Origin: Paenibacillus flagellatus
GTDB taxonomy: Bacteria; Bacillota; Bacilli; Paenibacillales; NBRC-103111
Direction of reading: 5' to 3'
DNA: 64,000 nt
Assembly: GCF_003217775.1 (NCBI RefSeq)
Contig: NZ_QJVJ01000012.1
Coordinates: forward strand, 1-64,000
Part shown: piece by piece, positions 6,854 to 56,469 of the stretch
Numbering within the stretch: the stretch's first letter is position 1
How the letters are laid out: each line of letters starts with the position of its first letter
The notes under the pieces: generated by a model
What the model was told of the DNA's origin: nothing
What the model saw: the letters and a program-made list of their open reading frames with translations, nothing else
The model's database searches: none
Translations under genes and position numbers: made by a program

Positions 6854-6880
6854 AGATGGTAGAAAGAGAGTGTGTGTGGT

Positions 6881-7570: not shown

Positions 7571-7580
7571 TGTGTAAAAG

Positions 7581-7611: not shown

Positions 7612-7821
7612 TCAGGAGGTCCATTCGGATTCATCAATCTCGATATGAATCCATCCAGTTGGGATGATGTGGAGTTTGTTATCAGCGGTCTTCAAACGGT
7701 GAGTCCCAGAGTCACGAACAATAAGTTCAGTTACATTTAAAAGAACTACTTTCCCACCATTTGGAAAAAAATATGTTCTTGAAGATTCCTTAAGTTGTAT
7801 AGGCTTACCGACCTCAGACAT
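7612..7821 (-). CDS. Small hypothetical protein (69 aa), low G+C
   Basis: ATG at 7821 preceded by a GGGGGG RBS at ~7-nt spacing (GTG at 7839 also in frame). No recognisable motif. Confidence 0.35.
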   Translation of the reverse strand: MSEVGKPIQLKESSRTYFFPNGGKVVLLNVTELIVRDSGTHRLKTADNKLHIIPTGWIHIEIDESEWTS

Positions 7822-7910
7822 AATTGTACCCCCCGACACGTCTATATACTACATTATACATCAAAAAGCAATTGCAGTATATATTTCAAAAACGATCAGA
7901 GGTGTAAGGC

Positions 7911-8894: not shown

Positions 8895-9231
8895 CCCGAA
8901 AATAAGTTTATTGATACGGTAACAATCATGTAACAAAATGTCGCGAATTTAGCGATAATTGGAAATAATACAAAACGCCGAAAACCCAGTCAGGACAGCA
9001 TGCTACGGTTCGCCGCATTGACGTCCTTACATCAAATTAGGGTATCTTCGCCTAGAGGCATTATTTTAACTCTATTAAATAGGCGAAAAACTAGCCTGGC
9101 ATTATATGAGTCATTGCCTTAAAAACTGCCGCAAAAATTCGTAATAAAGTATGATAAATTAAGAGAATAGTGCGTCACAGAACATTAAGAGCCTTGATTT
9201 TACGTGATTTTGAGGCACTGAGGGGCTTTTT

Positions 9232-9456
9232 CTAACCCTCCACCAAATCCACAATCTCCCGAATATCGCTGATGCCTAGAGCATCGGCGATTTTTTCAAT
9301 ATGCGAGAAGTTGATGTTCGCGCGCTTGCCGTTGGCTAACTCGCTTAAGGCGGCATGGCGGACGTCGGACAAGCGGGAGAGCTCCCTTAAGGAAATACCT
9401 CGTTGTTTCAACAACTCCGGAATTTTCACAACCACTTTCTTGGACATTTGGATCAC
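9232..9456 (-). CDS. XRE-family (Cro/cI-type) helix-turn-helix transcriptional regulator
   Basis: 74-aa protein QRGISLRELSRLSDVRHAALSELANGKR, a typical HTH_XRE. Sits at the island boundary, divergent from the next ORF. Confidence 0.8.
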   Translation of the reverse strand: MIQMSKKVVVKIPELLKQRGISLRELSRLSDVRHAALSELANGKRANINFSHIEKIADALGISDIREIVDLVEG

Positions 9457-9567
9457 CGCTCCACTTTGGAATTGACTATACGCGATAACGTACCATATAA
9501 TTGAAGAAGGGCTGGTACGTATATGCGTAACATCATTTATTCAGTATTCCGCGATTGGAGGAGGCCT

Positions 9568-9855
9568 ATGCATGAATGGATCAATGAAACGATCGTAGAG
9601 AGGTTCCGCCTCTTATCCGGCAACGCCGAACAACTAGAAGAGGTTAAGGTACTACGAGCCCGTACTAGGGAAGCCGAACAACAACTCCTCGCAAACATGC
9701 CGCATGAAAGAGAGCATCTAGACAACCTGCTCAACCTGCTCACAGAACTCGACACCCTACATAACAAGCACTTCTATGCCAAAGGACTACAGGACGGCAT
9801 CCAACTTCTTATCTTTTTCCTGTTTGACGACGGCATTTTGGAGTCCAATAAATAA
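9568..9855 (+). CDS. Hypothetical small protein (95 aa) divergent from the XRE regulator
   Basis: ATG at 9568 preceded by GGAGGAGG. The ORF track's 9523 start is an upstream extension. No known motif. Confidence 0.4.
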   Translation: MHEWINETIVERFRLLSGNAEQLEEVKVLRARTREAEQQLLANMPHEREHLDNLLNLLTELDTLHNKHFYAKGLQDGIQLLIFFLFDDGILESNK

Positions 9856-9892
9856 TGGGTACCTACCATTCCCCGAAAAGAAAGGAGCTTGC

Positions 9893-10180
9893 ATGATCCT
9901 TACCCAAGACATCCCTCTCTGGTGGGTCATCGCCATCGGCGTCCCGGTCATCCTCCTCAACCTGTACTTGGAATTCCGCCACCGCAAAAAGGAGGAGGCG
10001 AAAGCATCGGAAGACGGCGAAAAAGCCAGCGGGTCACGGAGCACAAACGCCCCGATCCAAGACTACGGCTACTGGCGCACGATCACGAAGCCTCGCAAGC
10101 CGGATGCCCCCGCGCCAGATAACCGTTCGGCGATCCCGAACGAGGAAGGAGATCCCCCCAGCAAAACCAGCCGGTCCTGA
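9893..10180 (+). CDS. Small membrane protein (single TM helix, Pro/charged-rich tail)
   Basis: ATG at 9893 with RBS AAAGGAG 6 nt upstream. Sequence MILTQDIPLWWVIAIGVPVILLNLYLEF is a TM helix. Confidence 0.4.
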   Translation: MILTQDIPLWWVIAIGVPVILLNLYLEFRHRKKEEAKASEDGEKASGSRSTNAPIQDYGYWRTITKPRKPDAPAPDNRSAIPNEEGDPPSKTSRS

Positions 10181-17304: not shown

Positions 17305-20300
17305 TCAGTTCATCAATCCGAGCTTCGTCGCGAGCCGTTTCAGCATGACGGCGGCTTGCGCGCGACTCGTATGGTCTTGCGGGGCGAAGACGGAATCGTC
17401 GACGCCGTTCAGAATGCCTTCGCTGACGGCGAGTGCCGCTGCGTCGCGGGCCCAGCCGCTGATCTTGCCGGCGTCCGCGAACGCCTGCAGCGCGGACGGG
17501 CTGCCCGATGCGGCCCGGCCGTCCACGAAGTCGAACGCGCGTGCGGCCAGCACGGCGAGCTCTTCGCGGCTGATCGCTTGGTTCGGACGGAACGTGCCGT
17601 CCTCGTAGCCTTCGATCAGCCCGGCCTTGGAGGCGGTTGCCGCCGCGGACGCGAACCAGTCGGAGGCGCGGACGTCGCCGAACGACGACGAGCCGTCCTG
17701 CGGAGTCAGACCGAGCGCGCGTACGAGCAGTGCGGCGAATTCGGCGCGCGTAATTGATTGGTCGGGGGCGAACGCCGTGTCGGTAACGCCCTTCACGAGC
17801 AGCTTCGACGCGAGGCGCTCGATGTCCGCTTGCGCCCAATGGCCTTTCATGTCGTCAAACGTCTTGCTGTAGGAGACGACGGTATACAGGCTGTTGCCGG
17901 TCCGCTTGATGATGACGGTCGTTTTGCCGTTCGCTTGGATGAAGCGGGCCGGAACGAACGTCATCTCGCCGGTAGCCGGGTCGATGACGACGGCGGTTGC
18001 GGAACCGGATACGTTGCCGGACAGGGTGAGCGAACGCTCCGCATACCGGCTGCCGAAATCGTCGATCGTCCGCGTCTTGCCGCCGGCTTGCACGCGGAGG
18101 CTGAAGTCGTAGACGTCGCCGATCACTTCGCCGCCTTGCTTTTCCACCGCATCGGCGATGGCGTCCGCTTCCGTGCCGGTTATCTTCTCGAGCGTGATCA
18201 GCACTTGCATGTCTCCCGCTTGAACGCCCAATTCACTCGCTATCGCGTCGATGTCGAGCAGGTCGGCCGGCAGGTGATACGTCACGCCGCCGGATCTGAC
18301 GGTCAGCACGGCCCCGTCCACGGAGTCGGCCGCTTGGTTCAGCGACTGTGCGGGAAGCGATACGATCGCGACCGGCTGGGTATCCGACACTTCGACGATC
18401 AGCTGCTTCGACGTCGATCCTTGCTGCCGCAACGAGGAGATCGCTTTGTTCAGCGCGTCCGCGTCGAGCGTCACCTTCATCGCCGGCTTGCCGCTGTCGT
18501 CCGTCGTCTGAACCGGCGTTGCCGGGATCACGACACCGGATTCCGCAGGAGTCGTCGGTGCCGGTTGGTTCGGAGTCGTCACGACCGGGCCGGACGACGG
18601 CGGTGGCGTCGTGGACGAATCGTCGCTGCTCGATTCCGGCGTGTACGTCAATTGAATCGACTTCTCGTTCGTCTTCATGTTGTCTACGTAAACCGCAAAG
18701 GTGACCGTGTTGACGCCTTGCTGCAAGTTCACCCGTCCGGCGAAATCGCCGTTCGGAGCGACGGCGGCCGCGGTTCCGTTCAAGGTGACGTTAACGGTCG
18801 TTCCGGCACCGAGCACCTTGACGTTGCCGCGCAGCTCCGGGTTCGGGGTCGATACGGTTTTGCCGTCGTAGTTCAGGAAGCCCGAGAGAGCCGCGGCCCG
18901 AATGTCGTCGCCGATATTGTACGAGTTGGCGATGAGCTGGCGCTTCGTGCGCACGCCGTTCAGGTCGAGCGCGGAGATGACCATGCCGCCCGGCGGAATG
19001 GCGCTGTTGTTGTCCTGCGGCGCGCTCCAGTTCCAGTTGATCGCCTGCGATTTGTTGGCCATCTTGACGACTTTGCCCGTCGCGTCCGCGACGACTTCGA
19101 CGCCGAACCGGTTCCCGCCGGTCGAGGTGCCGTACTCGTCGTTGTACACGTTCAGGTCGCCGAGGTTGCGGCTGACGTTGTAGAAGTCGCCCTCGATGAA
19201 CGAGGAAGGACTGCCGGGCTTGCTCATGCCGATCTGGTAATCCTTCACGTACGTTTCGTTATCGATCGACGCTTTGATGATCGGCCAGTTGGCGAGCGAG
19301 GCGTCGAACAGCATGAGCCCGTTCGAGCTGCCGAGCGCCGTCTGGAAAATGGTGCGCTGCAGCTCCGGCGACTGCAGGTCCGCGAGCGCCATGCCCGCGT
19401 ACAGCGGCACTTCGCCGTTGGTCACGATCGAGTCGAGCGTAATGTAACGCTGAATTTCTTGCGGCGTGCTGTAATACGTGCCGACCATCAGGAAGTCCAT
19501 ATGGTCGATGTAGCCGGTTTGGTAATAGCCGTCCGTGTAGATCGAATTCGTCGGGAAGTTCAACCGGCTGTCGTACCGGAAGTTTTTGCTGCCCCAATGG
19601 ACGCCGTTCAAGTAGTACGATTCGAACCAGGCGCCGACGTAGGCGGACGTTTCGATTTTCCGTCCCTTCGAGGCCGTGTACCGGTCGACGAGCTGGCGCG
19701 TTTCTTTCACGAAGCTCTCGATCGTGCCGGAACGGAACTCCCACCAATCCTGGATGAGCGGACCGTCTACCCGTCTGCCGTCCTCATAGCGGAAAATATC
19801 TTGAGGCCAAGCGTTCAGCTGCTTGCCGCGCTGCTGCAAAAACGCCTCGAATTTCTGCTTCGTTACGTCGCTGAAATCGGCGGTTTCGTTGTCGTACCGG
19901 CCGCGGTCGAGAATGATGCCGTCGACGTCGTAGTTTTTCAGCACTTCCTCGAACGTCTTCAGCTGGAAGTCGCGCACCTCGTCGTTCGCCGGGTTGACGA
20001 ACAGGACGGCCGCGCCGTTGGCGGCGCCGGACAAGCCGCGCTGGCCGTAGGCGCTCTCGCGAAGCCGCTTGATCTCTCCGCCGTCGTCGACGCGGTAGAC
20101 GCGCTCCTCCCAGTCGAGATGCTGATCGATGATGGCGAAGTCCTTCACGGCGATCGAGCCTTCGGCGAAGACGTTAAACGCCGCGTGCACCTTCAGGCCG
20201 AGCGCATGGCTGTGCGTCAGGAACAGCTCCAGCAGGTCGAGATCGGGGTTGGAGCCCTGCCGATCGACCGCGGTCATCTCGCTGACGTACGGACGATGGG

Positions 20301-21975
20301 TCAGATCGTTTTTCTTGTACGAGACGAAGCCTTCCACGCCTTTGACGTCAAAGGCGACATCGGTAACGCCGGCGTTCTTCGCCTTGGTCAGGAAGTCGAG
20401 GACGGCTTGGCTCGACTGGAATTTCTTCGCGTTCGACGCCTGGTCCACCCACAAAATGACTTGCTTCTCGGCGGGCAGGGACGGCCGGCTGTACACGATG
20501 ACGGACTTCTTGTCGTGCTGGGTGCCGCCCTTCGAAACCGTGACATCGATATAGTTCGGGCCGGCCGTAAGCGCCGCTTGGTGGGAGAACGTGCCGTTCG
20601 CTCCGATGGCGACGGTCGTTCCGCCGATCTGCAGGACGGCGCCGTCCGGGTTCGTCACCTTGCCGGCAATCGTCGCGGTCGTCGACGGCGTCGTGTACAT
20701 GGTCAGGCCGTCCAGCTGCAGGCGCGGAATGGCGCCGAGACCGGTCATGAGCTCGCTGACGGGAACGACGTTGCCGTTTTTGCGCAGCTTGACGACGTCG
20801 CCTACATTGAATTTGGTCGCCAAATATTTTTTGAAATCCAGCGTGGCGTAGCTGTTGTCCTGCGCCATGACGACGTATCCGCCTTGCGGAATGTCGAGCT
20901 CGCCGCCTACCCAGGACGGCGGGCTGGTGCCGTTCGCCTTGTTGATCATCTTCATCACTTTGCCGGACGCGTCGACTTGAATCGCGACGTTGGTAGCCGG
21001 AATCGTAATCTTCGACGCGTATTCGGTCGTGAACAGGGCGATGATGTTCGGGATGCCGGTCACATCTTTGTCGATGTAATTGATCGGCTTCTTCGGCCCT
21101 TCGACGACGATCGTGATGTCCTCCGGCGGCGCCTCGATCTCGATCAGGTCGCCGACGTGATACGTAATCACGACCGATTCGCTCTGCAGCACGTCCGCGT
21201 TGCGGAGCAGCTTGACGGGAATCGTATTGGCGCCCGCGGTCAAGGTGACCGGCTGGCTGAACGAGCCGTCGGGCTGCACGCTAGCGTCCGCGTCGCCCAC
21301 CTTCACCGCAAGGCCGGTGCCGGACACATAGTTCAGCACTTTTCCCTGAATGGTGTACGTAGCCGTCGTCACGGTCGTGCCGGATGCGGTCGAAAGTTGG
21401 AGAGTCGGCTGGGCCGGATCGGGCAAAAAGTCTGCCGCGGTTACCCGTACGCCTCCGCGCTCGAGGGCAATGGTGTCGCCGGCTTGAAACGTATTATAGA
21501 GCGCCTTGCGGAAGTTTTTATCGAGCCAATTGTCATCGGATGCCAGAAGGACGAAACCTCCGGGCGGAATCGTGACATTTTGGTCCGGGTCCCAGCTGTA
21601 CGGTTTATTGTTGCTGGGATTGATGCCTCCCTGGGGGCCGACCATCTTCAATACGTTGCCCTGCGCATCCACTTGGATAGCGGCGTTCGTCGTTTTCACG
21701 AAGACGGCATTGTTGTTGCCGGAGACGTTCGTTACCGACGTACCGCTCGTGAAGAGAGCCACGTAATCTTTCTTCTGCGGCGCAGCGTCCACATTCACGT
21801 TCACATGGTTCAATTTCAGCTTCCTGCTCCCGTCCAACGACACCGCATACACGTCGTCGGTTACGGAGCCGCTCCCGGCATCGGCCGCCAGCGCGCCCGT
21901 CCCGAAAGTCGGGAACAGCGACACCAGCAGACAGACGATCAGGAACACATTCATTCGGTACCGTCCGGTTCTCAT
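17305..21975 (-). CDS. Large cell-surface protein: signal peptide, glycoside-hydrolase-like (GHL10/DUF187, YngK-like) domain, Ig-like domains, three C-terminal SLH domains
   Basis: RBS AGGAGAAGG 6 nt upstream of the ATG at 21975. Signal peptide present. C-terminal SLH repeats (WFASAAATASKAGLIEGYEDGTFRPNQAISREE...). Central VILWVDQASN...VTDVAFDVKG resembles a GHL10 TIM barrel. Confidence 0.7.
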   Translation of the reverse strand: MRTGRYRMNVFLIVCLLVSLFPTFGTGALAADAGSGSVTDDVYAVSLDGSRKLKLNHVNVNVDAAPQKKDYVALFTSGTSVTNVSGNNNAVFVKTTNAAIQVDAQGNVLKMVGPQGGINPSNNKPYSWDPDQNVTIPPGGFVLLASDDNWLDKNFRKALYNTFQAGDTIALERGGVRVTAADFLPDPAQPTLQLSTASGTTVTTATYTIQGKVLNYVSGTGLAVKVGDADASVQPDGSFSQPVTLTAGANTIPVKLLRNADVLQSESVVITYHVGDLIEIEAPPEDITIVVEGPKKPINYIDKDVTGIPNIIALFTTEYASKITIPATNVAIQVDASGKVMKMINKANGTSPPSWVGGELDIPQGGYVVMAQDNSYATLDFKKYLATKFNVGDVVKLRKNGNVVPVSELMTGLGAIPRLQLDGLTMYTTPSTTATIAGKVTNPDGAVLQIGGTTVAIGANGTFSHQAALTAGPNYIDVTVSKGGTQHDKKSVIVYSRPSLPAEKQVILWVDQASNAKKFQSSQAVLDFLTKAKNAGVTDVAFDVKGVEGFVSYKKNDLTHRPYVSEMTAVDRQGSNPDLDLLELFLTHSHALGLKVHAAFNVFAEGSIAVKDFAIIDQHLDWEERVYRVDDGGEIKRLRESAYGQRGLSGAANGAAVLFVNPANDEVRDFQLKTFEEVLKNYDVDGIILDRGRYDNETADFSDVTKQKFEAFLQQRGKQLNAWPQDIFRYEDGRRVDGPLIQDWWEFRSGTIESFVKETRQLVDRYTASKGRKIETSAYVGAWFESYYLNGVHWGSKNFRYDSRLNFPTNSIYTDGYYQTGYIDHMDFLMVGTYYSTPQEIQRYITLDSIVTNGEVPLYAGMALADLQSPELQRTIFQTALGSSNGLMLFDASLANWPIIKASIDNETYVKDYQIGMSKPGSPSSFIEGDFYNVSRNLGDLNVYNDEYGTSTGGNRFGVEVVADATGKVVKMANKSQAINWNWSAPQDNNSAIPPGGMVISALDLNGVRTKRQLIANSYNIGDDIRAAALSGFLNYDGKTVSTPNPELRGNVKVLGAGTTVNVTLNGTAAAVAPNGDFAGRVNLQQGVNTVTFAVYVDNMKTNEKSIQLTYTPESSSDDSSTTPPPSSGPVVTTPNQPAPTTPAESGVVIPATPVQTTDDSGKPAMKVTLDADALNKAISSLRQQGSTSKQLIVEVSDTQPVAIVSLPAQSLNQAADSVDGAVLTVRSGGVTYHLPADLLDIDAIASELGVQAGDMQVLITLEKITGTEADAIADAVEKQGGEVIGDVYDFSLRVQAGGKTRTIDDFGSRYAERSLTLSGNVSGSATAVVIDPATGEMTFVPARFIQANGKTTVIIKRTGNSLYTVVSYSKTFDDMKGHWAQADIERLASKLLVKGVTDTAFAPDQSITRAEFAALLVRALGLTPQDGSSSFGDVRASDWFASAAATASKAGLIEGYEDGTFRPNQAISREELAVLAARAFDFVDGRAASGSPSALQAFADAGKISGWARDAAALAVSEGILNGVDDSVFAPQDHTSRAQAAVMLKRLATKLGLMN

Positions 21976-27961: not shown

Positions 27962-30838
27962 ATGAGTCACATGAGGAAGACCGGCAGGGCCATCATCCTG
28001 CTGCTGATCTTGCTGATCGCGGTGCCTTTCCAGGCGTTTGCGGCCGGCGCTCCGTCCGCCGCATCCGATATCGGCGGCCACTGGGCGGAAAAGGAATTGA
28101 GCGGCTGGATCGGCAAAGGGCTGTTGTCCGGCTACGAGGACGGCACGTTCCAGCCGGACCGCAGCATCAGCAGAGCGGAGTTTTTCGCGCTCGTCAATCG
28201 TTCGTTCCGCTTTACGCAGGAGGCTTCCGTTTCGTTTGCCGATCTGGACGCGTCCCATTGGGCGGTTGCCGAGCTGAAGCGCGCGAAGGCGGCGGGCTAT
28301 GCCGACGGGTATCCGGACGGCACGATTCGCCCGGATCGGCCGATCAGCCGGGAAGAGGCGGCCGTCGTGCTCCGCAGCGTGCTGAAGCTGCAGGAGGACG
28401 CCGCGAAGGCGGGCGCGTTCCAAGACGCGGCGCAATTCGCCGACTGGAGCAAGGGCTCGATCGGCGCACTGGCCGCGAAAGGGTATTTGTCCGGCTACGA
28501 GGACGGCACGTACAAGCCGGGCCGGTCGATGACCCGCGCCGAGATGGTCGCGGTGCTCGATCGCGCCGTCGCCGATGCGGTCCCTACGACGGTTTATGAT
28601 GCAAAAGGTACATACGGTCCCGAATCCGGGACGACGACGATCGCGGGCAACGTCACGATCAGCGCTCCGGGCGTCACGCTGCGCAATACGGTTATCGAGG
28701 GCGATCTGCTGCTGGCGGAATCGATCGGCGAAGGCGACGTTTTCCTGAAAAACGTCACCGTCAAAGGCGCTACGACGGTCAACGGCGGCGGCGCGCGCTC
28801 CGTTCACTTCGAGGACTCCGTGCTGCTTACGGTTATCGTGAACAAAGCGGACGGCAGCATCCGGATCGTAGCGGAAGGGTCCACCAGCGTTCAGCAGTTC
28901 ACGGTGCAATCGAGCGCGCTGCTCGAGTCGCGCGGTACGAGCACGATCGCCGACGTCGTTCTGTCCAGTCTGCTTCCTTCAGGGGCTCAAGTCTCGATGG
29001 CCGGTCAGTTCAACTCGGTCGACGTGCAGGCGACGAGCGTCCGGGTCAGCTTGACGGAAGGCGCGATTCAACAGCTGACCGTCTCGCAAGGGGCGGATCG
29101 CTCGACGCTGCAGGTCGGTACGGGAGCGTCGGTCGCGCAGCTCGTGCTGAACGCCGCCGCTTCGGTCGTCGGCCAAGGCTCGATCGGACAGGCGACCGTC
29201 AACGCGAACGGCTCCAGCTTCGAGCGCAATCCCGGCGCGATGACGACCGGCGAAGGCGTGCAAGTGGGAGTGGGCACGGCTGCGCCTTCCGGCGGCGGGT
29301 CCTCCGACGGCGGTTCTTCCGGGGACGGATCGTCCGATGACGACAGCGGATTCGTCACCGGCTTCGGCGGGAAAATCGTCGACGTCTCGAATCAGCCGGT
29401 CGCCGGCATGACCATCCAATTCCGCCGCGGGCTGGACAACAAGGACGGCGACGTCGTCGCGACGGTCGTCACCGACGCCGAAGGACGCTACACCGTCGAC
29501 CTGGCACCCGGCATTTATACGGGCGAGCTGGTCAAGGAAGGATTTATTACAACTTATCTGATCGGCGTCTCGGCTTCGAACGTCCGCAATACCGCCGAGG
29601 ATGCGACCGCGATCCGCGTAGCGGCGGCGAACGAAATCCGTATCGTGCTCTCATGGGGCGAACGTCCTCGCGATCTCGATTCGCATCTCGTCGGGCCGAC
29701 GCCGACGGGCGGCGTGTTCCACACGTGGTACTCGGATAAGGTATACACCGTAGGCTCGGTCGTCTACGACGATCTGGACCATGACGACACGACGTCCTAC
29801 GGACCCGAAACGACGACGATTCGCCATACGGTGGACGGCCTGTACCGCTTCTACGTTCATAACTACTCCGGCGAGACGAACATGCGGGATTCGGGTGCCC
29901 ATATCGAGGTGTACGAAGGCTCCACGACGACGCCGGCCAAGACGTACGATATCCCGACGGGAACGGGGACGGAGCGGTACTGGACCGCATTCGAAATGAC
30001 GATCGCGAACGGCTCGATCGCCTCCTTCACCGACATCAACCAGTTCTATGCCACCGAATCGGCCGCGCAGGGCAGCTTGGGCGCGGGGATGACCGACGCC
30101 ACGGTAACGTCCTCCGTATACGGTATCGATCAAAACGTGCGCGAAATTACGGTACCGGCCAACGTGCCGGCGGAAAGCTTCAAGGCGGGACTTTCCGCCG
30201 CGCCGGGCGCTACGCTCAAGGTGTATCAAGCGGACGGCGTGACGCCGCGTACGGACATCGTAGCGGACGGAGACAAAGTCGTCGTCCGAGCCGCCGACGG
30301 AAGGACGTCCCGGACCTATACGGTACGGGTAAGCTCCGCGCCTACGGTGACGTCGCTCACATACGAGCCGGCGGGTCCGATCGTCTTGTACGATACGACG
30401 TCGCCGATCGGCATCCGGCTTCTGGCGACCGTCGGCACGACCGTGACGGACGTGACGTATCAGGCGACTTATGCGTCCAATCGCCCGGATATTGCGGACA
30501 TCGATCCGAACGGCGTTATTACGGCTGTCACATCCGGCTCGACGGTCGTGAGCGCCGTGTACGGCGGCTTGACGAAGGACATTCCGGTCATCGTTCTGCT
30601 CGCTCCGTCGTTGGCCGTATCGTCGTCGGACGCGTCGACGCTGACGGCGTCCGGACTCGTCTCGGGAGCCGCGGTCGGCCTGTACGACGCAAGCTCCGAT
30701 ACGATCGTCGGCAGCCCTTACACGGCGGGTCAGGACGGTACGGCGACCATACCGGCCGTTCCGGCAGGCACTTATTATATCATCCAGACTTATCAAGGCT
30801 TCGAGAGCGGTCGCTCGGCGACCGTGACCGTCAACTGA
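27962..30838 (+). CDS. S-layer/SLH-domain surface protein (three N-terminal SLH domains, beta-helix and Ig-like regions)
   Basis: Signal peptide. SLH repeats GYEDGTFQPDRSISRAEF, GYPDGTIRPDRPISREEA, GYEDGTYKPGRSMTRAEM. Promoter-like TTGTCG-N17-TACTAT upstream. Confidence 0.8.
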   Translation: MSHMRKTGRAIILLLILLIAVPFQAFAAGAPSAASDIGGHWAEKELSGWIGKGLLSGYEDGTFQPDRSISRAEFFALVNRSFRFTQEASVSFADLDASHWAVAELKRAKAAGYADGYPDGTIRPDRPISREEAAVVLRSVLKLQEDAAKAGAFQDAAQFADWSKGSIGALAAKGYLSGYEDGTYKPGRSMTRAEMVAVLDRAVADAVPTTVYDAKGTYGPESGTTTIAGNVTISAPGVTLRNTVIEGDLLLAESIGEGDVFLKNVTVKGATTVNGGGARSVHFEDSVLLTVIVNKADGSIRIVAEGSTSVQQFTVQSSALLESRGTSTIADVVLSSLLPSGAQVSMAGQFNSVDVQATSVRVSLTEGAIQQLTVSQGADRSTLQVGTGASVAQLVLNAAASVVGQGSIGQATVNANGSSFERNPGAMTTGEGVQVGVGTAAPSGGGSSDGGSSGDGSSDDDSGFVTGFGGKIVDVSNQPVAGMTIQFRRGLDNKDGDVVATVVTDAEGRYTVDLAPGIYTGELVKEGFITTYLIGVSASNVRNTAEDATAIRVAAANEIRIVLSWGERPRDLDSHLVGPTPTGGVFHTWYSDKVYTVGSVVYDDLDHDDTTSYGPETTTIRHTVDGLYRFYVHNYSGETNMRDSGAHIEVYEGSTTTPAKTYDIPTGTGTERYWTAFEMTIANGSIASFTDINQFYATESAAQGSLGAGMTDATVTSSVYGIDQNVREITVPANVPAESFKAGLSAAPGATLKVYQADGVTPRTDIVADGDKVVVRAADGRTSRTYTVRVSSAPTVTSLTYEPAGPIVLYDTTSPIGIRLLATVGTTVTDVTYQATYASNRPDIADIDPNGVITAVTSGSTVVSAVYGGLTKDIPVIVLLAPSLAVSSSDASTLTASGLVSGAAVGLYDASSDTIVGSPYTAGQDGTATIPAVPAGTYYIIQTYQGFESGRSATVTVN

Positions 30839-30870: not shown

Positions 30871-30914
30871 CCTCTGCGCGCGGAAACATCCGCGATCGCA
30901 GGGGTGTTTTTTTT
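30871..30914 (+). terminator. Rho-independent terminator (bidirectional, between convergent genes)
   Basis: GC-rich hairpin CCTCTGCG...CGCAGGGG followed by TGTTTTTTTT. Confidence 0.65.
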
Positions 30915-31917
30915 ATGGGCCGGATAGAAGTGCGGGCCGGATCTGATCGTCGGCGAGCTCCTTCAGCATGCTCAGCGCATCCCGCTGCGTCTTGAACACG
31001 GTGCCCGGCGAAGGGAACGGAACGAGGAACAGATGCAGCGATTTATGGGCGAGCCGGATGTCCGCCCGGTACGATTCGAGTGCCGCTCCCCGCTTCGTCG
31101 TCATATCGGCGAGCCGGAACGTCAGCGGCTTGAAAATGTCCGGCCCGAACATCAGCTCCAGCGCCTGCTTCTTGAAGCCGTTGGCGCCCGCACCGCCGAT
31201 GCCGATGACGACCTTCGCCTTGGAGGCGACGAACAGCGATTTCAAGAGGTCGGCACGCTTCCGCACGTCGCCGCCGAAATCGCTGAATAGCGGCTGCCCG
31301 TACGCCGAGGCGTTAAACGGCTTGGCCGGATGGTTGAACGCGGCCAAATACGGGTTGTTTGCGATCGATTCGGCGATGGCGCCGTACTCCTCGGGGTACC
31401 AGACGTCCTCCTTCTCCCGGGGGAGCGGCCGCCAATCGGCGAGCGCGGTTTGGACGCCGGTCCGGGGCTTGTACAGACTTTCGCCGATAAACCGTTTGAT
31501 GCGGGCCCACGCTCGCGGATTGTCCCGTCCGCTTTCGAACCAGGAGCCGTCCGGCTCTTCGAACGCCAAACAAATCCGGGCGACGGCCGGATTGAAGACG
31601 CCCTTCGTAAAATGCTGCCGCCGCCGCTTCTCGCCGGGCCGCAAATACCGCTCGACCTTGCCGCCTCCCTCGCCGGCGTTGGGCTCATAGAAGCCGCGCG
31701 TCCAGTCGCCCCCGTGGATGCAAAACCGGTAAGCGCCGTCCGGGGCGTCCCGGCCGAAATCGCGCAGGCGCGCCTCCACGTTGGCCCCGACGCTGTAGCC
31801 GCCGGTTCCTTCCTCGTTGCCGAATACGATGATGTCGGCGCCCGGAAAACTTCCGCAGCCTACGTAGGATAAAAGGACGTCGTACTCGGGCTTGGACAGG
31901 CGATTCGATGGATTCAT
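30913..31917 (-). CDS. Hypothetical protein (334 aa)
   Basis: Long ORF with high-G+C third-position bias. No recognisable motif. Confidence 0.5.
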   Translation of the reverse strand: MNPSNRLSKPEYDVLLSYVGCGSFPGADIIVFGNEEGTGGYSVGANVEARLRDFGRDAPDGAYRFCIHGGDWTRGFYEPNAGEGGGKVERYLRPGEKRRRQHFTKGVFNPAVARICLAFEEPDGSWFESGRDNPRAWARIKRFIGESLYKPRTGVQTALADWRPLPREKEDVWYPEEYGAIAESIANNPYLAAFNHPAKPFNASAYGQPLFSDFGGDVRKRADLLKSLFVASKAKVVIGIGGAGANGFKKQALELMFGPDIFKPLTFRLADMTTKRGAALESYRADIRLAHKSLHLFLVPFPSPGTVFKTQRDALSMLKELADDQIRPALLSGP

Positions 31918-32165
31918 TCGGTAACCTCCCGGATGGCATGGATTGTTCCATTGTACGATGCACCGCGGTCGGCTGCCTAGCCGGATCGGTCGGGAACCTT
32001 GGGGCGGGTCGACGGTGTCTGTAAAAAAAGCTTAAAGTAGCATGTCTAGGTTACTAATTAGGGAAATAGCCGTATCGGTGCAAAATTTCAACCAACCTTT
32101 CCACTTGCATAAATGTTGTAGACTTGAATTGTCTACGGGGCGGCGGGGTCGGGGCGAAAGGAGGA

Positions 32166-32195
32166 GAAGGTCCGGGAAGGTCCGGAGAAGGTCCG
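32166..32195 (+). repeat. Three direct repeats of GAAGGTCCG at 10-11-bp spacing upstream of the ABC transporter operon
   Basis: Copies at 32166-32174, 32176-32184 and 32187-32195. An inverted repeat TGTAGAC-N7-GTCTACG lies just upstream at 32117-32137. Confidence 0.6.
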
Positions 32196-32233
32196 ACCGA
32201 GGCCGTTCGTCCAAAATAAGCGAGGAGGCGTTT

Positions 32234-33211
32234 ATGGGTACGTTCGAGCCTGTCATTGAAGTAAGCGGGTTGAGGAAATCGTTCGGGAAGACGGAGGTGC
32301 TGCAGGGGGTCGACCTTCGCGTGGAGCGGGGAACCGTTTTCGCGCTGCTCGGGCCGAACGGGGCGGGGAAGACGACGATCGTCAGCATCCTGTCCACGCT
32401 GCTCGTCCCGGACTCGGGGAAGGTGAACATATGCGGGCACGACGTCGTGCGCGAGGCGGACGCGGTCCGCAGCCGGGTCAGTCTGACCGGCCAGTTCGCG
32501 TCGATCGACGAGGGGATGTCCGGCCGCGACAACTTGGCGATGATCGCGCGCTTGATGGGCTATTCCAAGAAGGAGGCCGTCGTTCGCGCGAACGAGCTGC
32601 TGGACGCGTTCGACCTGACGGAGGCGGCGGGCCGCCCGGCGAGCGCCTACTCGGGAGGGATGCGGCGCCGGCTCGACATCGCGGCCAGCCTCGTCGTGAC
32701 GCCGGACCTGCTGTTTCTCGACGAGCCGACGACCGGACTCGATCCCCGCAGCCGCAACCAGGTGTGGGACATCGTCCGGACGCTGGTCGCCCAAGGGACG
32801 ACGGTGCTGCTGACGACGCAATACTTGGAGGAGGCGGACCAGCTGGCCGACCGGATCGCCGTCATCGACCACGGCAAGGTGATCGCCGAAGGGACCGCAA
32901 GCGCGCTGAAGGCGTCGGTCGGCTCGGGCACCGTGCAGGTGAGGCTGGATAAGCCGGAGCAGCGCCCGGAGGCGGAGCGGATCCTGTCCCGCACGCTAGG
33001 CGCGGAGGTACGCCCGGATTCCGATCCGGCGGCGCTGTCGGCGCGCGTGTCCGATCCGGGGCTGGCCGCACGGGCGTTGACCGAGCTGCTGCAGGCCGGC
33101 ATCCCGACGACTCATTTTTCGCTCGGCCAGCCCAGCCTTGACGAAGTGTTCTTGGCTTTGACCGGCCGACCGGCCGAAGAAGCCGCCGAGAACGGAGGGG
33201 GATCGATATGA
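32234..33211 (+). CDS. ABC transporter ATP-binding protein (DrrA-like)
   Basis: RBS GAGGAGG 5 nt upstream of the ATG at 32234. [11 protein letters not shown] Walker [10 protein letters not shown] signature, [12 protein letters not shown] Walker B. The ORF track's 32042 start is a spurious extension. Confidence 0.85.
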
Positions 33212-34062
33212 ACGCAACGATGCAGGGGCAAGGGCAAGTCCGTACGGCCGCCGACCGGAAGCTGACGCAGGCGCTGTCCGCCCGCGTCCGGCCGAAACGT
33301 CCAAGCGCGCTTTCCGCTACGATGACGTTCGTCTGGAGGACGGTGCAGAAGACGAAAGCGTACGGCTGGACCGCCTTGGTCGACATCCTGCTGTTCCCCG
33401 CGCTGTTCCTGCTCATCTTCACCTTTTTGTTCGGGGGCGCCATCTCCGGGTCGACCGGCGATTATTTGCAGTTTCTGCTTCCGGGGATGCTCGTGTATAC
33501 GGTGACGTCGATGACGGTATATACCGGGGTGGCGATCAACACGGACATCACGAAAGGAGTGTTCAACCGGTTCCGAACGCTGCCGTTCTGGCAATCGGCG
33601 GCGATTCTCGGCTCGGTGGCGGTCGATATCGTTCGGTACGCCGCGGCGGTCGTCGCCACCGCTGGCATCGGGACGCTGCTCGGCTTCCGCCCGGAGGCGG
33701 GGTGGACGGGCGCCGCGCTCGCCGTGCTGACCGTCGTCCTGTTCGCCTTCAGCGTCAGCTGGATCTTCGCCTGGCTCGGCGTCGTCGTGAAGAAAACCGA
33801 ATCGCTCACAACGACGAGCTACCTGGCGCTGTATCCGCTTATGTTCGCGAGCAACGTGTTCGTCGATTCGTCCACGATGCCCGGCTGGCTCCGCGGCTTC
33901 GTCGACCTGAATCCGCTCAGCCTCGCCTCGACGGCGGTCCGGGGGCTGATGCACGGCACGGCCGCCGCCGGCGACGTCGCTTGGGCGTTGGCGGGATGCG
34001 CCGTTCTCGTCGCGGTGTTCGCGCCGCTGACGTTTTACGGGTATCGACGCAAAGCGGTTTGA
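33208..34062 (+). CDS. ABC-2 family transporter permease (DrrB-like)
   Basis: Overlaps the ATPase stop by 4 nt. Six predicted TM helices. ABC-2 type. Confidence 0.75.
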
Positions 34063-34187
34063 AGCCGTGCTTTTGAAAATGGCATAACCGAACCTAACAA
34101 AGGATGCTTCCTTCGGGACGGGAGCCGTCGGCGTTACGAAGACCGGCTCCTCCTTTCGGGGGAGCATCGCAAAAAGGAGGAAGTCGT

Positions 34188-36707
34188 CTGAACGACAAGA
34201 TCGTTATCCGCGGCGCTCGCGAAAACAATTTGAAGCACGTCTCCCTGGACATTCCGAAGCATAAGCTGGTCGTCCTGACCGGACCTTCCGGCTCCGGCAA
34301 GTCGACGCTCGCGATGGATACGCTTCAGCGGGAATGCCAGCGCCAGTATATGGAATCGATGGGGATGGCGGCCGATCAGGTCGGCAAGCCGAAGGTGGAC
34401 TCCATCGTCGGACTGTCTCCGTCGATCAGCGTAGGGCAGCACGTCACGAACCGCAATCCGAGATCGACGGTCGGCACCGTGACCGACATCTATACGTACT
34501 TGCGCGTCGTCTACGAGAAGCTGGGCGAGCGCCCGTGCTCGAGCTGCGGCAGGACGGTTCCGCCGTCCCCCGCGAAGGATGCGGAAAGCCCCGCGATCGG
34601 GGACGAGGACGGCGGCGGGTTCCAGAAGTACGTCGATTGCCCGCATTGCGGCCATACGATGAAGAAGCTGGAACGGAGCCACTTCTCGTTCAACAAGCCG
34701 GAGGGCGCCTGCGAGACGTGCAGCGGGCTCGGCAGCGTGGCCAGCCTCGATTTGGACGCCGTGTTCAATCCGGAGCGGAGCCTGCTCGACGGCGGCGTGA
34801 CGTTCTGGTTCGAGATGCTCGCGAAGTACCAAGTCTCGACCCTTGCCGCGGCGGCCAGCCATTACGGCATTCCGTTCGACCCCGACAAGCCTTTGAAGGA
34901 ATTCGCCCCCGCCCTGCGCGATTTGCTGTACTACGGCGTGGAGAGCGAGGAGTTCGTACGGCACGTTCCCGGCGTGAAGCCGCCGAAGGCGGTCGGCCAA
35001 GGGAAGTTCGAGGGCGTCGTCACGGGCATATGGCGGCGGTACAAGGAAAAAAACGGCGAATCCGGCGAGGCGGCGCTGTTCCATGAGGAGATATGCCCCG
35101 ATTGCCGCGGGGCGAGGCTGAAGCGGGAAAGCTTGCTCGTCCGGGTGAACGGGGCGTCGATCGCCGACGTATCCGGCTGGTCGCTGGAAACGGCGTTTGC
35201 CTGGCTGAACCGTCTCCTGCAAGGGCTCGGCCCCGACGACAAATCGATCGCGGAGGCGCTGCTGCACGACTTGCTCGTTCGCCTGAGGCGGATTACGGAT
35301 GTCGGCCTCGGCTACTTGTCGCTGGACCGGCAGGCGGTGACGCTGTCCGGCGGCGAAGCGCAGCGGCTCCGGCTCGCCTCGATTCTCGGCTCGGGCCTGA
35401 CCGGCGTCCTGTACATTCTCGACGAGCCGACGGCCGGACTTCATCCGCGCGATACGGCCGGGCTCATCCAGGTGCTGAAGCAGCTACGCGATCTCGGCAA
35501 TACGGTGCTCGTCATCGAGCACGACGTCGAGATGATGCGTGCCGCCGACCACGTCATCGACATGGGGCCCGGAGCGGGCAGCTTCGGCGGACGCGTCGTC
35601 GGGCAAGGGACGCTGGACGATCTGGTCGCAAGCCCGGAGTCGGTGACGGGCGCGTACCTTCGGGACGAGCTCGCCCGGGCGGTGGAGCCGCGCCGGAGAC
35701 GGCCGGGCAACGGGCGATGGCTGACGATTCACGACGCCTACGAGCGGAACTTGAAGCATATTACCGTGTCGTTCCCGCTCGGCTGCCTCGTCTCGGTAAC
35801 CGGGGTGTCGGGCTCGGGCAAGTCGACGCTGCTGTTCGACCTGCTGGCGGCCGGCGGGCGCGACGGGCAGAAGCGGCGCGGCTGCGAGCGTATTACCGGA
35901 CTCGACGCCATCGGCCAGATGGTCACCGTCGACCAGTCCCCGATCGGGCGGATGAGCCGGTCGAACGTCGCCACGTATACGGACGTGTTCACGCTGCTGC
36001 GCAGCTTGTTCGCCGGACTGCCGGAAGCGAAGAGCGCGAAGCTGACGTCGAAGCATTTCTCGTTCAACACGCCCGGCGGGCGGTGCGAGACGTGCCAAGG
36101 TCTCGGCGTCGTGTCCATGAACATGCATTTTCTTCCCGACCTCGAGGTTCGCTGTCCCGATTGCCGCGGCCGGCGGTTCAAGGACGAGGTGCTGCGGGTA
36201 ATTTATAAAGGCTTCACGATATCCGACCTGCTGGACATGACCGTGCAGGAGAGCTTGCCGCTGCTGCAGGATCAGGACAAGATCGCCGGCATCATCGGGC
36301 TGCTGTGCGAGGTCGGGCTCGGCTACCTGCAATGGGGGCAGTCGGTGAGGACACTGTCGGGCGGGGAGGGGCAGCGGCTCCGGCTCGCCAAGGAATTGAG
36401 CGGCAGAACGAAGAACCATACGCTGTACTTGCTGGACGAGCCGTCCACCGGCCTGCATCCGGCCGATACGCGGCAGCTGGTCGTGCTGCTGAACAAGCTC
36501 GTCGATGCCGGCAACACCGTCATCGTCGTCGAGCATAACGTCGACGTCATCCGCGAATCGGACTGGGTCGTCGACATCGGCCCGGAAGGGGGAGAGGCGG
36601 GCGGCTCGGTCGTGGCGGCGGGGACGCCGGAGACGGTCGCAGCCGTGGACGCTTCGCACACGGGGCGTTACCTGAAGACGGCGCTCGCGGGAGCGGGGAC
36701 CGTGTAA
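34188..36707 (+). CDS. UvrA-family protein (excinuclease ABC subunit A paralogue; short, DrrC/UvrA2-like)
   Basis: N-terminus IRGARENNLKHVSLDIPKHKLVVLTGPSGSGKSTLAMDTL aligns to the UvrA N-terminus. Second ABC module GVSGSGKSTLL, with Zn-finger CxxC motifs. The aligned start is a CTG at 34188, 7 nt after AAAGGAGG; no ATG/GTG/TTG is available there. The ORF track's 34104 start is an extension. Confidence 0.8.
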   Translation: MNDKIVIRGARENNLKHVSLDIPKHKLVVLTGPSGSGKSTLAMDTLQRECQRQYMESMGMAADQVGKPKVDSIVGLSPSISVGQHVTNRNPRSTVGTVTDIYTYLRVVYEKLGERPCSSCGRTVPPSPAKDAESPAIGDEDGGGFQKYVDCPHCGHTMKKLERSHFSFNKPEGACETCSGLGSVASLDLDAVFNPERSLLDGGVTFWFEMLAKYQVSTLAAAASHYGIPFDPDKPLKEFAPALRDLLYYGVESEEFVRHVPGVKPPKAVGQGKFEGVVTGIWRRYKEKNGESGEAALFHEEICPDCRGARLKRESLLVRVNGASIADVSGWSLETAFAWLNRLLQGLGPDDKSIAEALLHDLLVRLRRITDVGLGYLSLDRQAVTLSGGEAQRLRLASILGSGLTGVLYILDEPTAGLHPRDTAGLIQVLKQLRDLGNTVLVIEHDVEMMRAADHVIDMGPGAGSFGGRVVGQGTLDDLVASPESVTGAYLRDELARAVEPRRRRPGNGRWLTIHDAYERNLKHITVSFPLGCLVSVTGVSGSGKSTLLFDLLAAGGRDGQKRRGCERITGLDAIGQMVTVDQSPIGRMSRSNVATYTDVFTLLRSLFAGLPEAKSAKLTSKHFSFNTPGGRCETCQGLGVVSMNMHFLPDLEVRCPDCRGRRFKDEVLRVIYKGFTISDLLDMTVQESLPLLQDQDKIAGIIGLLCEVGLGYLQWGQSVRTLSGGEGQRLRLAKELSGRTKNHTLYLLDEPSTGLHPADTRQLVVLLNKLVDAGNTVIVVEHNVDVIRESDWVVDIGPEGGEAGGSVVAAGTPETVAAVDASHTGRYLKTALAGAGTV

Positions 36708-36833
36708 AGCGAACGAAAGCGTCGCCCGGGCGGGCGGCGCTTTCGTGCTGCACCCGTGCGGTGCGGCTCTTGCACGAGTGGTTCCATATCCGCAACGTTT
36801 CCCGTGTCCGATGGCCGATGGCCGATTCAACCT

Positions 36834-37634
36834 TCAACCGCCGAAAAATTCGATCAGCAGCGGCGCCAGCGCTTCGGGTGCGACATCGTGGCCTTGTCCC
36901 GCCAACACTTGATGCTTCGCCCTGGCGAGGCGGTGTACCAGCGTCTTCGCGGCATCGTGGAAAAACGGTTCGCTGAGCTCGCCGCTGACCACGAAGGTGT
37001 CGGACGTTACGCCGGCCCATTTCCCGGGCGGCAACGGCCTTCCGGCCATGACGTCTCGCGACACCATTCCGTCATAGGCGAGCGTGTGCGCCACAGCCAA
37101 GAGATCGCTCCATATCGGACTTTCTTTCATCGGGGCCAAATATTCGTCCGGAATGAGCAGTGCCTGCGTCATAAAAATTTCCAAAGCTTGCTCGCGCCGG
37201 CCGGCCTCGACGGCTTCGCCGATCCGCTCGACGTAATCCCGGGGAAGCGGCGGACGGCTGCCGTCGAGGATGAGGGGCGGTTCGTACAAGGCCAGCTTCG
37301 GGATCTTGCCCGCCAGCTTTTCGGCGGCTTCCAGGGAAAGAATCGCGCCGGACGACATGCCGTAAAGGAAGGCGCTTCCGCCGGCGGCCTCGATTAAAGC
37401 CGCAATATCCTCTATCTCGCGCTCGACCGCGTAGGGCATGGTGTCGCCGCTATCGCCCCTCCCCCGGCGATCGTAATTGAACACGGTGAAACGATCAGAG
37501 AGCAAGTCGGCCATTTGCGTTTGCGCAGGGAACGCGCGATAACCGAGGGCGCCGGTAACCATAATGACCGCCGGACCGCTGCCGTACCGATCGAATGCGA
37601 TGCTCGTACCGTCTTTCGAGATGATGTTGTTCAT
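36834..37634 (-). CDS. Alpha/beta-hydrolase fold protein
   Basis: GPAVIMVTGALGYRAF...NYDRRGRGDSGD pattern. Start at MNNIISK (37634) overlaps the next gene's stop. Confidence 0.7.
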   Translation of the reverse strand: MNNIISKDGTSIAFDRYGSGPAVIMVTGALGYRAFPAQTQMADLLSDRFTVFNYDRRGRGDSGDTMPYAVEREIEDIAALIEAAGGSAFLYGMSSGAILSLEAAEKLAGKIPKLALYEPPLILDGSRPPLPRDYVERIGEAVEAGRREQALEIFMTQALLIPDEYLAPMKESPIWSDLLAVAHTLAYDGMVSRDVMAGRPLPPGKWAGVTSDTFVVSGELSEPFFHDAAKTLVHRLARAKHQVLAGQGHDVAPEALAPLLIEFFGG

Positions 37635-55326: not shown

Positions 55327-56469
55327 GTGGCGATGCGGCGGGAACGGTTACGGGAGGAAGCCGAGCGGTTTATCCGCGCGTGCGGCGGCGAGCTGGGGTG
55401 GAGCCGGGAGGCGACGGAGAGTCGGGTGCGCGACGTGCGGGAGGCGATCGCTTCGGCCGGACGGTACGAGCATACGGCGGAGGAGCTGCGCCACGGCGCG
55501 CGGATGGCTTGGCGCAACAGCAACCGGTGCATCGGCCGGCTGTTCTGGGAGACGCTGGAGGTGCGCGACGCGCGCCATCTCGATACGGAGGAAGCGATCT
55601 TCGAGTCGCTGCTCGGGCATATCGAATACGCGACGAACGGCGGCAAAGTCCGCCCGGCCATTACGGTTTTTCCGGCCGACCGGAGTCCCGAGGAGCGGGT
55701 GCGCCTTTGGAACTACCAGCTGATCCGGTACGCCGGCTACGAGACGGAGCACGGCATCGTCGGCGATCCCGACTCGGTGGCGATGACGAACGTGTGCCGG
55801 AAGCTGGGCTGGAGCGGCGAAGGGACGGCGTTCGACGTGCTTCCGCTCGTCGTGCAGGTCGGGGGACGGGAGCCGAAGCTGTTCCCGATTCCGCGGGAGC
55901 TCGTGCTCGAAGTGCCGATCGCGCATCCCGAGCTGGCCGGGTTCGCGGAGCTGGGCTTGAAATGGTACGCCGTACCGATCGTCTCCAACATGCGGCTCGA
56001 CATCGGGGGCGTTTCCTATTCGGCGGCGCCGTTCAACGGCTGGTACATGGGGACGGAGATCGCGGCGCGCAACTTCGCGGACGCGGGACGGTACGACATG
56101 CTGCCGCGCGTCGCTTCGCTGATGGGGCTCGATACGTCGCGGGAATCGTCCTTGTGGCGGGATAGGGCGCTCGTGGAGCTAAACATTGCCGTGCTTCATT
56201 CGTACAAGCGGCAGGGGGTGTCGATCGTCGACCATCATACGGCGGCGCGGCAGTTCGTCCAGTTCGAGGAACGGGAACGGACATGCGGCCGCGACGTGAC
56301 GGGAGAGTGGACGTGGCTCATTCCGCCGGTTTCGCCGGCGGCGACGCCCGTCTTCCACCGGCATTACGACAACCGGACGGTGACGCCGAATTTCTTTTAT
56401 CCGGACGAGGCGGCGCCGCCCGAGAGTCGGACCTGCCCGTTCTCCGCGGGAGCGGCGGCTACATCATAG
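55327..56469 (+). CDS. nos: Bacterial nitric oxide synthase, oxygenase domain only (bNOS)
   Basis: WRNSNRCIGRLFWETLEVRD, the heme-thiolate signature. Also WYAVPIVSNM and GWYMGTEIA. No reductase domain present. Confidence 0.85.
   Translation: MAMRRERLREEAERFIRACGGELGWSREATESRVRDVREAIASAGRYEHTAEELRHGARMAWRNSNRCIGRLFWETLEVRDARHLDTEEAIFESLLGHIEYATNGGKVRPAITVFPADRSPEERVRLWNYQLIRYAGYETEHGIVGDPDSVAMTNVCRKLGWSGEGTAFDVLPLVVQVGGREPKLFPIPRELVLEVPIAHPELAGFAELGLKWYAVPIVSNMRLDIGGVSYSAAPFNGWYMGTEIAARNFADAGRYDMLPRVASLMGLDTSRESSLWRDRALVELNIAVLHSYKRQGVSIVDHHTAARQFVQFEERERTCGRDVTGEWTWLIPPVSPAATPVFHRHYDNRTVTPNFFYPDEAAPPESRTCPFSAGAAATS

Follow-up and report, generated by a model that had tools for sequence, protein, structure and literature searches.

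A three-gene operon at positions 32234–36707 of a 64-kb stretch of Paenibacillus flagellatus DNA (the window, meaning the whole stretch analysed, whose numbering is used throughout) joins a predicted drug pump to a paralogue of the DNA repair protein UvrA. With moderate confidence, we interpret it as an inducible operon of a non-producing bacterium that would protect against DNA-binding small molecules of the intercalating or adduct-forming kind, a function deduced from sequence and comparison. The region is filled by three open reading frames (ORFs) on the plus strand: a drrA-like ATP-binding cassette (ABC) ATPase of 325 aa (32234..33211, ATG start, TGA stop), an ABC-2 type permease of 284 aa (33208..34062, ATG start) and a UvrA paralogue of 839 aa that has no UvrB-binding domain (34188..36707, CTG start, TAA stop). 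That the ATPase, permease and UvrA-like genes are contiguous and co-oriented had been noted in the first-pass annotation of this DNA, and all of its coordinates hold. The same gene order is found in five other genomes (loci L009, L014, L015, L020 and L022), which argues that the contiguity of the three genes is not due to chance.

Several features indicate that the three genes form a single unit. The stop codon of the drrA-like gene and the start codon of the permease gene share 4 nt (ATGA). The 125-nt gap between the permease and the UvrA-like gene contains no terminator-like site in a scan for sigma-70 and terminator consensus sequences, a scan that gave nothing useful across the operon as a whole. 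A conserved promoter motif, described below, lies 5' of drrA in the window, which places all three genes in one unit, and it does so in all loci of the DrrAB type. Directly 3' of the UvrA-like stop codon, a GC-rich stem-loop with a 15-bp stem (36713..36746, plus strand) probably marks the end of the operon and may act as a terminator. The fold of the surrounding sequence (36700–36775) has an energy of -47 kcal/mol (z = -4.6), and none of 200 shuffled sequences was as stable; the hairpin has no U-tract. Attenuation is not claimed, since hairpins in the spacer (z = -1.8) and folds of the drrA 5' untranslated region (z = -1.1) are no better than those of shuffled sequences. An Rfam scan of positions 31800–37000 at E <= 1 returned no match, and so no known riboswitch or leader. 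The drrA-like ATG at 32234 is preceded at 5 nt by the sequence GAGGAGG. Between this functional Shine-Dalgarno sequence and an apparently orphaned AAAGGAGG, the untranslated region carries a triple direct repeat, (G)AAGGTCCGG, at 32163–32195, which is absent from the leaders of orthologous drrA genes in Cohnella.

Public databases annotate the third product as 'excinuclease ABC subunit UvrA'. The protein exceeds the cut-off of the UvrA family model TIGR00630 (947 bits against 730), and its best matches among solved structures are canonical UvrAs, those of B. stearothermophilus (761 bits) and C. thermocellum (756 bits), followed by UvrA2 of Deinococcus radiodurans (DrUvrA2, 538 bits) and Ecm16 (458 bits). 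A genuine function in nucleotide excision repair is nevertheless extremely improbable. The match to TIGR00630 consists of two stretches that skip profile positions ~118–248, the score against NF001503 remains below the cut-off (962 bits against 1147), and a Pfam search detects the insertion domain PF17755, which binds DNA, but not the UvrB-interaction domain PF17760. Because the domain that docks UvrB is missing, we judge the protein not to be a UvrA of nucleotide excision repair. No uvrB gene adjoins it, the family is present in multiple copies in several Paenibacillus species, P. harenae and P. eucommiae among them, and canonical UvrA fragments with PF17760 exist in Paenibacillus.

Apart from the missing domain, the protein retains the features of a complete UvrA. 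Zinc module 1 (C117, C120 ... C151, C154; 34536..34649, plus strand) encloses a 30-residue linker that replaces the UvrB-binding domain of about 120 residues. In an alignment, members of the family have 15–32 residues between the blocks flanking this module, against 120–123 in the UvrAs of E. coli and Streptomyces. All 12 zinc cysteines (C117, C120, C151, C154; C175, C178, C303, C306; C633, C636, C656, C659) are 100% conserved in 120 homologues. Likewise, both Walker A motifs (GPSGSGKST at 32–40 and GVSGSGKST at 539–547) and the signature, Walker B and H-loop motifs of both ATPase modules (LSGGE, DEP and IEHD/VEHN) are invariant in the 60–120 homologues compared. The AlphaFold model has the UvrA fold with a predicted local distance difference test score (pLDDT) of 82, and linker residues 129–144 are disordered, with a pLDDT below 50. 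The conservation of ATPase motifs and zinc cysteines, together with the modelled fold, suggests that the paralogue is likely to be active. The closest proteins by sequence are the canonical UvrAs of class I (2R6F of B. stearothermophilus and 9GXK of C. thermocellum), which have the insertion domain, all three zinc modules and the two ATPase modules in common with it. It differs from class I in the short loop that stands in for the UvrB-binding domain, in having neither a uvrB neighbour nor a Cheo-type LexA box (SOS box) in either upstream region of the operon, and in the multiple copies of the family present in several species.

The retention of zinc module 1 also separates the paralogue from the known resistance proteins. 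Class IIa UvrA is defined by the loss of both the UvrB-binding domain and zinc module 1 (PMC9328131, PMC10192343); the P. flagellatus protein has lost the first and kept the second. Both CxxC pairs of the module are absent from two reference proteins recovered from plasmid records, one of the Ecm16 type (L082, 1320 bits to 7SH1) and one of the DrUvrA2 type (L081, 1506 bits to 2VF7). Sequence identity amounts to 47–51% with class I and 38–42% with class IIa. A neighbour-joining tree of 17 sequences and 740 columns, which includes four more distant relatives of about 840–856 aa, places the family beside class I and splits it from both class IIa lineages with 100% bootstrap support. The tree is small, and class I is represented in it by E. 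coli and Streptomyces, without class I proteins of Bacillales; when the N-terminus of the B. stearothermophilus protein was used as the query, nothing but fragments came up. The four relatives were the useful single-length ones among the top 150 matches of a search of protein representatives. In that library, duplicated UvrAs of about 1600–2300 aa, which contain two units per chain whose halves add up, outrank single-length relatives. Plasmids of lactic acid bacteria and of clinical Acinetobacter, Klebsiella and Enterobacter often carry UvrA paralogues of the Ecm16 and DrUvrA2 lineages, also without the UvrB-binding domain. A UvrA-like match is present in 920 plasmid records, with L083 (Enterococcus durans) and L085 (Acinetobacter pittii) among the examples.

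Judged from these sequence comparisons, the UvrA paralogue is not a member of class IIa, to which DrrC and Ecm16 belong. A place in the DrrC/Ecm16 type, which the comparison in the first-pass annotation would imply, does not withstand the retained zinc module, the 458 bits to Ecm16 or the bootstrap support for the split. Phylogeny and the UvrB-binding domain had been put forward there as the means of telling a genuine repair UvrA from a resistance paralogue, and they give a divided answer: the absence of PF17760 sets the protein apart from the repair enzyme, while in the small tree it groups next to class I and away from class IIa. Within class II, a published scheme distinguishes IIa from IIb (Marszalkowska 2013, as cited in PMC9328131) and may already name this lineage; no paper on this Firmicutes UvrA lineage was found in the literature searched.

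Ecm16 (PDB 7SH1) remains instructive for the possible mode of action. It confers echinomycin resistance without UvrA, UvrB, UvrC or UvrD, and depends on its insertion domain as well as on the hydrolysis of ATP (PMC9328131, PMC10192343). Ecm16 and DrrC share with the P. flagellatus paralogue the UvrA fold, two ABC ATPase modules, the insertion domain and the lack of a UvrB-binding domain, and by analogy this common domain set leads one to expect an ATP-dependent action independent of nucleotide excision repair. The differences lie in the four cysteines of module 1, missing in Ecm16 and invariant in the present family, in the separate clades of the tree, and in the much weaker match to Ecm16 than to B. 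stearothermophilus UvrA.

The first two genes of the operon encode the predicted pump. The ATPase belongs to the drrA subfamily by its score against TIGR01188 (355 bits, cut-off 312), and contains PF00005 and the DrrA C-terminal domain PF13732 (DrrA1-3_C; score 33.4, cut-off 27.4). Its identity to the Cohnella orthologues amounts to 73%, with a ratio of non-synonymous to synonymous substitution rates (dN/dS) of about 0.15. The permease matches PF01061 (ABC2_membrane, E = 4.5e-24) and scores far below the cut-offs of the DrrB families (TIGR01247, 45 bits against 223; TIGR00025, 68 against 147). From these profile scores, it is an ABC-2 type permease outside the curated DrrB family. The description of the pair as a DrrA/DrrB-type exporter in the first-pass annotation is borne out for the ATPase; the permease is only distantly DrrB-like. 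The doxorubicin exporter DrrAB of S. peucetius is similar in combining a DrrA-subfamily ATPase that has the DrrA C-terminal domain with an ABC-2 permease and in the translational coupling of the two genes, and differs in the family membership of the permease. PADLOC detected only generic ABC-ATPase similarity (mad3, mad8), and an anti-phage system was rejected on that ground.

Control of the operon can be approached through comparison with related loci. One genome per species was scanned, which confirmed 269 loci of the UvrA-like family; the best 80 were kept and, together with the window, make up the 81 loci behind the counts of motifs, regulators and exporters, so that these neighbourhood statistics describe the closest relatives. 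A conserved promoter/operator, AACCTTTCCACTTGCATAAATGTTGTAGACT, lies at 32094..32124 (plus strand), with TAGACT as the likely -10 element (family pattern TAnnAT). The family motif AACCTTnnCAyTTGCATnAATGTwrTAnnAT is present in 62/81 loci. The window contains a single copy of its core TTGCATnAATGTwrTA, where chance alone would give 0.09. The motif is found 50–320 nt 5' of the UvrA-like gene where that gene comes first, and 1.84–2.08 kb 5' of it, that is, 5' of drrA, in 6/6 DrrAB loci including the window. A second conserved element (CTTAAAGTAGCATGT in the window, 32031..32045, plus strand) is present with at most two mismatches in 25 of the 62 motif loci. This element (CTTAAAGTnnnATGA) is fixed at 62–63 or 72–74 nt 5' of the TTGCAT core, has no occurrence in control regions, and in other genomes adjoins the start of a divergent gene for a tandem-MerR regulator.

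The regulator and the motif occur together. A divergent tandem-MerR gene is present in 38/62 motif loci and in 0/19 loci without the motif; in 17 of these 19 the divergent gene encodes a MarR protein and the promoter region differs. A single tandem-MerR chain of about 240 aa combines two MerR helix-turn-helix domains, and no effector domain can be recognised in it. These regulators (in loci L004–L079; for example L034 6996–7730 and L009 5279–5989) are only distantly related to CueR, BmrR and MtaN. Their presumed operator contains TTGCA and TTGTA 11 bp apart and forms no palindrome. The spacing at the promoter departs from the 19 bp of a classic MerR promoter, and the assignment as a MerR operator is made by co-occurrence. 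The window itself contains no tandem-MerR gene. The position that the gene occupies in relatives is taken by an ORF of 334 aa (30913–31917, minus strand) with no match in Pfam, NCBIfam or PADLOC. A tandem-MerR protein of P. flagellatus, P0410, is encoded on another contig and is 67% identical to the Cohnella one. With both cis elements kept and this regulator encoded elsewhere in the genome, control of the window operon in trans by a tandem-MerR protein is plausible.

The UvrA-like gene has an uncommon start. The first-pass annotation had proposed CTG at 34188 as the start codon, and comparison with relatives confirms it. The CTG (34188–34190) is the very codon at which the UvrA homology sets in, and it lies in the same frame, as seen in the alignment of the N-terminus LNDKIVIRGARENNL with MDKIIVKGARAHNL of B. 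stearothermophilus UvrA. It follows the Shine-Dalgarno sequence AAAGGAGG (34173..34180, plus strand, read from the sequence) with a 7-nt spacer. Starts could be compared in the window and 79 related loci with an anchorable N-terminus (L079 gave no anchor). In all of these, the start codon stands exactly 8 codons before the GA.ENNL motif, preceded by a GGAGG-like Shine-Dalgarno sequence, mostly with a match of 4–5 of 5 positions. The start codons comprise 31 ATG, 28 TTG, 19 GTG and 2 CTG, the last found in the window and in P. hemerocallicola, which at 82% identity is the closest relative. The dN/dS of 0.13 between these two genes indicates that the UvrA-like gene is under purifying selection, and the sharing of CTG by both makes it most likely that the codon was inherited and is not a sequencing error. 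The only canonical alternative, an in-frame ATG at 34104, was rejected because it has no suitably spaced Shine-Dalgarno sequence and would add an unconserved extension of 28 residues. The CTG start is thus real, as had been said; it is not new, as RefSeq already annotates it and an identical protein of 839 aa, starting MNDKIVIRG, is in NCBI for Paenibacillus flagellatus. Non-ATG starts account for 61% of the family, a frequency that suggests selection for low-level translation.

The UvrA paralogue is a member of a large family in Bacillales and related Bacillota, with proteins of about 820–850 aa. The top 120 database matches are all 818–876 aa long; most belong to Paenibacillaceae, and some to Bacillaceae, Sporosarcina, Thermoactinomycetaceae and Symbiobacteriaceae. 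By assignment of ORF clusters, 37/81 loci have an adjoining exporter on the same strand, represented by DrrAB upstream in 6, ABC half-transporters (transmembrane domain followed by nucleotide-binding domain) downstream in 19 and major facilitator superfamily transporters in 12. A tblastn search places an exporter within 2.5 kb on the same strand in 33/81 loci. Counted on both strands, exporter density is 0.097 per kb near the gene and 0.035 per kb in the distal flanks. Other neighbours include glyoxalase/bleomycin-resistance-like proteins, short-chain dehydrogenase/reductase (SDR) enzymes and rhomboid proteases.

The history of drrAB at this locus bears on the possibility of an incidental pairing, in which a pump of the DrrAB type, serving an unrelated substrate, was inserted between the promoter and the UvrA-like gene without any functional tie. 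The closest relative (L001, 82% identity) has no drrAB, the pair was lost several times, and the DrrA subfamily is broad, with substrates that are mostly unknown. In two loci the stretch from the motif to the UvrA-like gene still holds a remnant, of drrB in L005 and of the N-terminal part of drrA in L007, and these remnants indicate that the three-gene unit is ancestral in the subclade and was repeatedly lost, probably also in L001. Against a chance insertion, the order is retained in six genomes in which the three genes show similar divergence and are under purifying selection, and exporters of other types were recruited independently at the same locus. We therefore hold a purely incidental pairing to be quite unlikely.

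The main rival explanation, which we consider unlikely, though less so than an incidental pairing, assigns the paralogue to the sensing of DNA damage. The protein would be a UvrB-independent damage sensor, or an accessory factor of repair or tolerance like DrUvrA2, within a general xenobiotic-stress regulon, and the pump would share its regulator and not its compound; no drug would be displaced. DrUvrA2 (PDB 2VF7) also has no UvrB-binding domain and gives the best structural superposition in Foldseek (TM 0.81, within a range of 0.79–0.81 for 2R6F and 2VF7). It has no zinc module 1 and falls into a different clade, shared with Acinetobacter plasmid paralogues. We know of no exporter or MerR linkage for DrUvrA2. 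A damage sensor would agree with the same domain logic as that of DrUvrA2, whose role remains unclear (PMC9328131), with the family standing nearer to the repair UvrAs of class I than to resistance proteins, with the glyoxalase/bleomycin-resistance-like, SDR and rhomboid neighbours, and with the fact that more than half of the loci have no adjoining exporter. It sits less well with the repeated recruitment of three unrelated exporter types beside the gene and under the same promoter, with the lack of any conserved nuclease or other repair partner nearby in the examined loci, and with the missing SOS box.

The pairing of a pump with a UvrA that has no UvrB-binding domain has precedents, and in this respect the comparison of the locus with those of daunorubicin and echinomycin resistance in the first-pass annotation was well founded. 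The specific models are less apt. According to a review, ecm16 of S. lasaliensis has no adjacent transporter genes (PMC6804068). The closer counterparts are mtrA-mtrB-mtrX (mithramycin) and cmrA-cmrB-cmrX (chromomycin) of Streptomyces, which likewise combine an ABC transporter pair with a UvrA-like protein and are read as two-layer resistance by efflux and DNA protection (PMC6804068). They are the best architectural match by gene set; their gene order and orientation are not given in that source. The mtrABX and cmrABX genes sit at the ends of the producers' biosynthetic clusters, whereas none of the larger ORFs in the 64 kb around the Paenibacillus operon is biosynthetic; its UvrA paralogue is of another lineage that keeps zinc module 1, and its control involves a conserved motif associated with a tandem-MerR regulator. 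In S. peucetius, drrC presumably does not adjoin drrAB.

The resemblance to mtrABX and cmrABX is also the chief argument for a self-resistance cassette belonging to a DNA-intercalator biosynthetic cluster of P. flagellatus, as the first-pass annotation had proposed, and UvrA-like genes do serve as markers for such clusters (PMC10413001). The surroundings make such a cassette very unlikely. Pfam scans of 20 further large ORFs of the window and of the immediate neighbours of the operon, which are narrower than a full screen of the antiSMASH kind, found no polyketide synthase, non-ribosomal peptide synthetase or tailoring genes among the larger ORFs over ~32 kb upstream and 27 kb downstream, and this leaves self-resistance unsupported. 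The larger ORFs encode S-layer homology (SLH) surface proteins, an FtsK/SpoIIIE-domain protein, HtpG, RtcB, a regulator with a phosphotransferase system (PTS) regulation domain, a PTS permease, a phosphotriesterase-family protein, a nitric oxide synthase oxygenase and a zinc alcohol dehydrogenase. Moreover, the conserved neighbours in the 80 relatives are regulators and exporters rather than biosynthetic genes, and the paralogue stands outside the clade of Ecm16 and DrrC.

Under the interpretation we prefer, an inducible protective operon in a non-producer, the promoter/operator at 32094–32124 would be the binding site of the tandem-MerR regulator encoded elsewhere in the genome, and the DrrAB-type ABC-2 pump would expel the compound. 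The UvrA paralogue, made at a low level from its CTG start, would scan DNA as an ATP-driven dimer and, unable to recruit UvrB, would work without nucleotide excision repair. Its task would be to find DNA distorted by a drug and to clear it, an activity shown for Ecm16 and proposed for DrrC. The recurrent association of the family with exporters and with regulators of the drug-response type speaks for such a role. The clearing of drugs is suggested here by analogy across lineages, as are the inducer and the substrate of the pump.

Several points weigh against this interpretation. The literature searched holds no functional data on any member of the lineage, and since the paralogue lies outside the Ecm16/DrrC clade, the mechanistic analogy has to cross lineages. 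DrUvrA2, a protein without the UvrB-binding domain as well, has no clear drug phenotype (PMC9328131). An adjoining exporter is present in only about 40% of the relatives and DrrAB in only 6/81 loci, and the permease, by its profile scores, is only distantly DrrB-like. The regulator gene is not located beside the operon and is linked to the motif by co-occurrence only. The CTG start may mean very low expression of the paralogue.

Other parts of the window differ in composition and content. Positions 1–10000 have a GC content of 36–40%, against about 60–65% elsewhere in the window, and encode an FtsK/SpoIIIE-domain protein of 1554 aa (2147–6811) and an SfsA-like protein (6872–7570); this low-GC block looks like a horizontally acquired island. 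A second patch of lower GC content (52–56%, 38–42 kb) contains an ORF for a 717-aa protein (38541–40694, plus strand) with weak matches to an OTU cysteine protease at the C-terminus and to the endonuclease/exonuclease/phosphatase family at the N-terminus, which may be a secreted effector or toxin. The nitric oxide synthase oxygenase domain protein is encoded at 55327–56469 on the plus strand (PF02898, 562 bits). Four very large surface proteins are encoded at 17305–21975 (minus), 27962–30838 (plus), 41399–45385 (minus) and 60149–62917 (minus); three of them have SLH-domain matches, and the one at 27962–30838 is SLH-like by reading of its sequence alone.

A broader proposal can be made tentatively, and we hold it to be rather doubtful. 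The family might constitute a third, independently derived UvrA lineage, in Bacillales, which lost only the UvrB-binding domain, kept the zinc module and became the core of a widespread inducible module of 'DNA-drug clearance'. A single-chain tandem-MerR regulator without a recognisable ligand domain would bind the non-palindromic TTGCA/TTGTA operator, its two elements 11 bp apart, together with the second element phased 62–63 or 72–74 nt upstream. The regulator or the promoter might then sense an intercalator-induced change in the DNA and not the free drug, and the three exporter types would have been plugged into the module repeatedly.

The logic of combining a pump with a UvrA that has no UvrB-binding domain is familiar; the operon differs from known cases in its UvrA lineage, in its setting in a non-producer, and in its control, for which a conserved motif linked by co-occurrence to a tandem-MerR regulator is proposed. 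The annotation 'excinuclease ABC subunit UvrA', carried by hundreds of these proteins, is misleading. At present, UvrA-like proteins count as signposts to the intercalator biosynthetic clusters of actinomycetes, and as a curiosity of self-resistance. The separate lineage described here is apparently very common in soil and environmental Bacillales, with its 269 loci among the scanned genome representatives. The family amounts to a natural experiment in which everything except the UvrB dock has been kept, zinc module 1 included, and which separates the sensing of damage or distortion from the hand-off to the repair machinery. If its members perform the same task as the actinomycete proteins under a dedicated drug-type regulator, the ATP-driven clearing of DNA-bound toxins would be a general form of intrinsic resistance in bacteria that do not produce such compounds, and a clearing strategy that could also mobilise.

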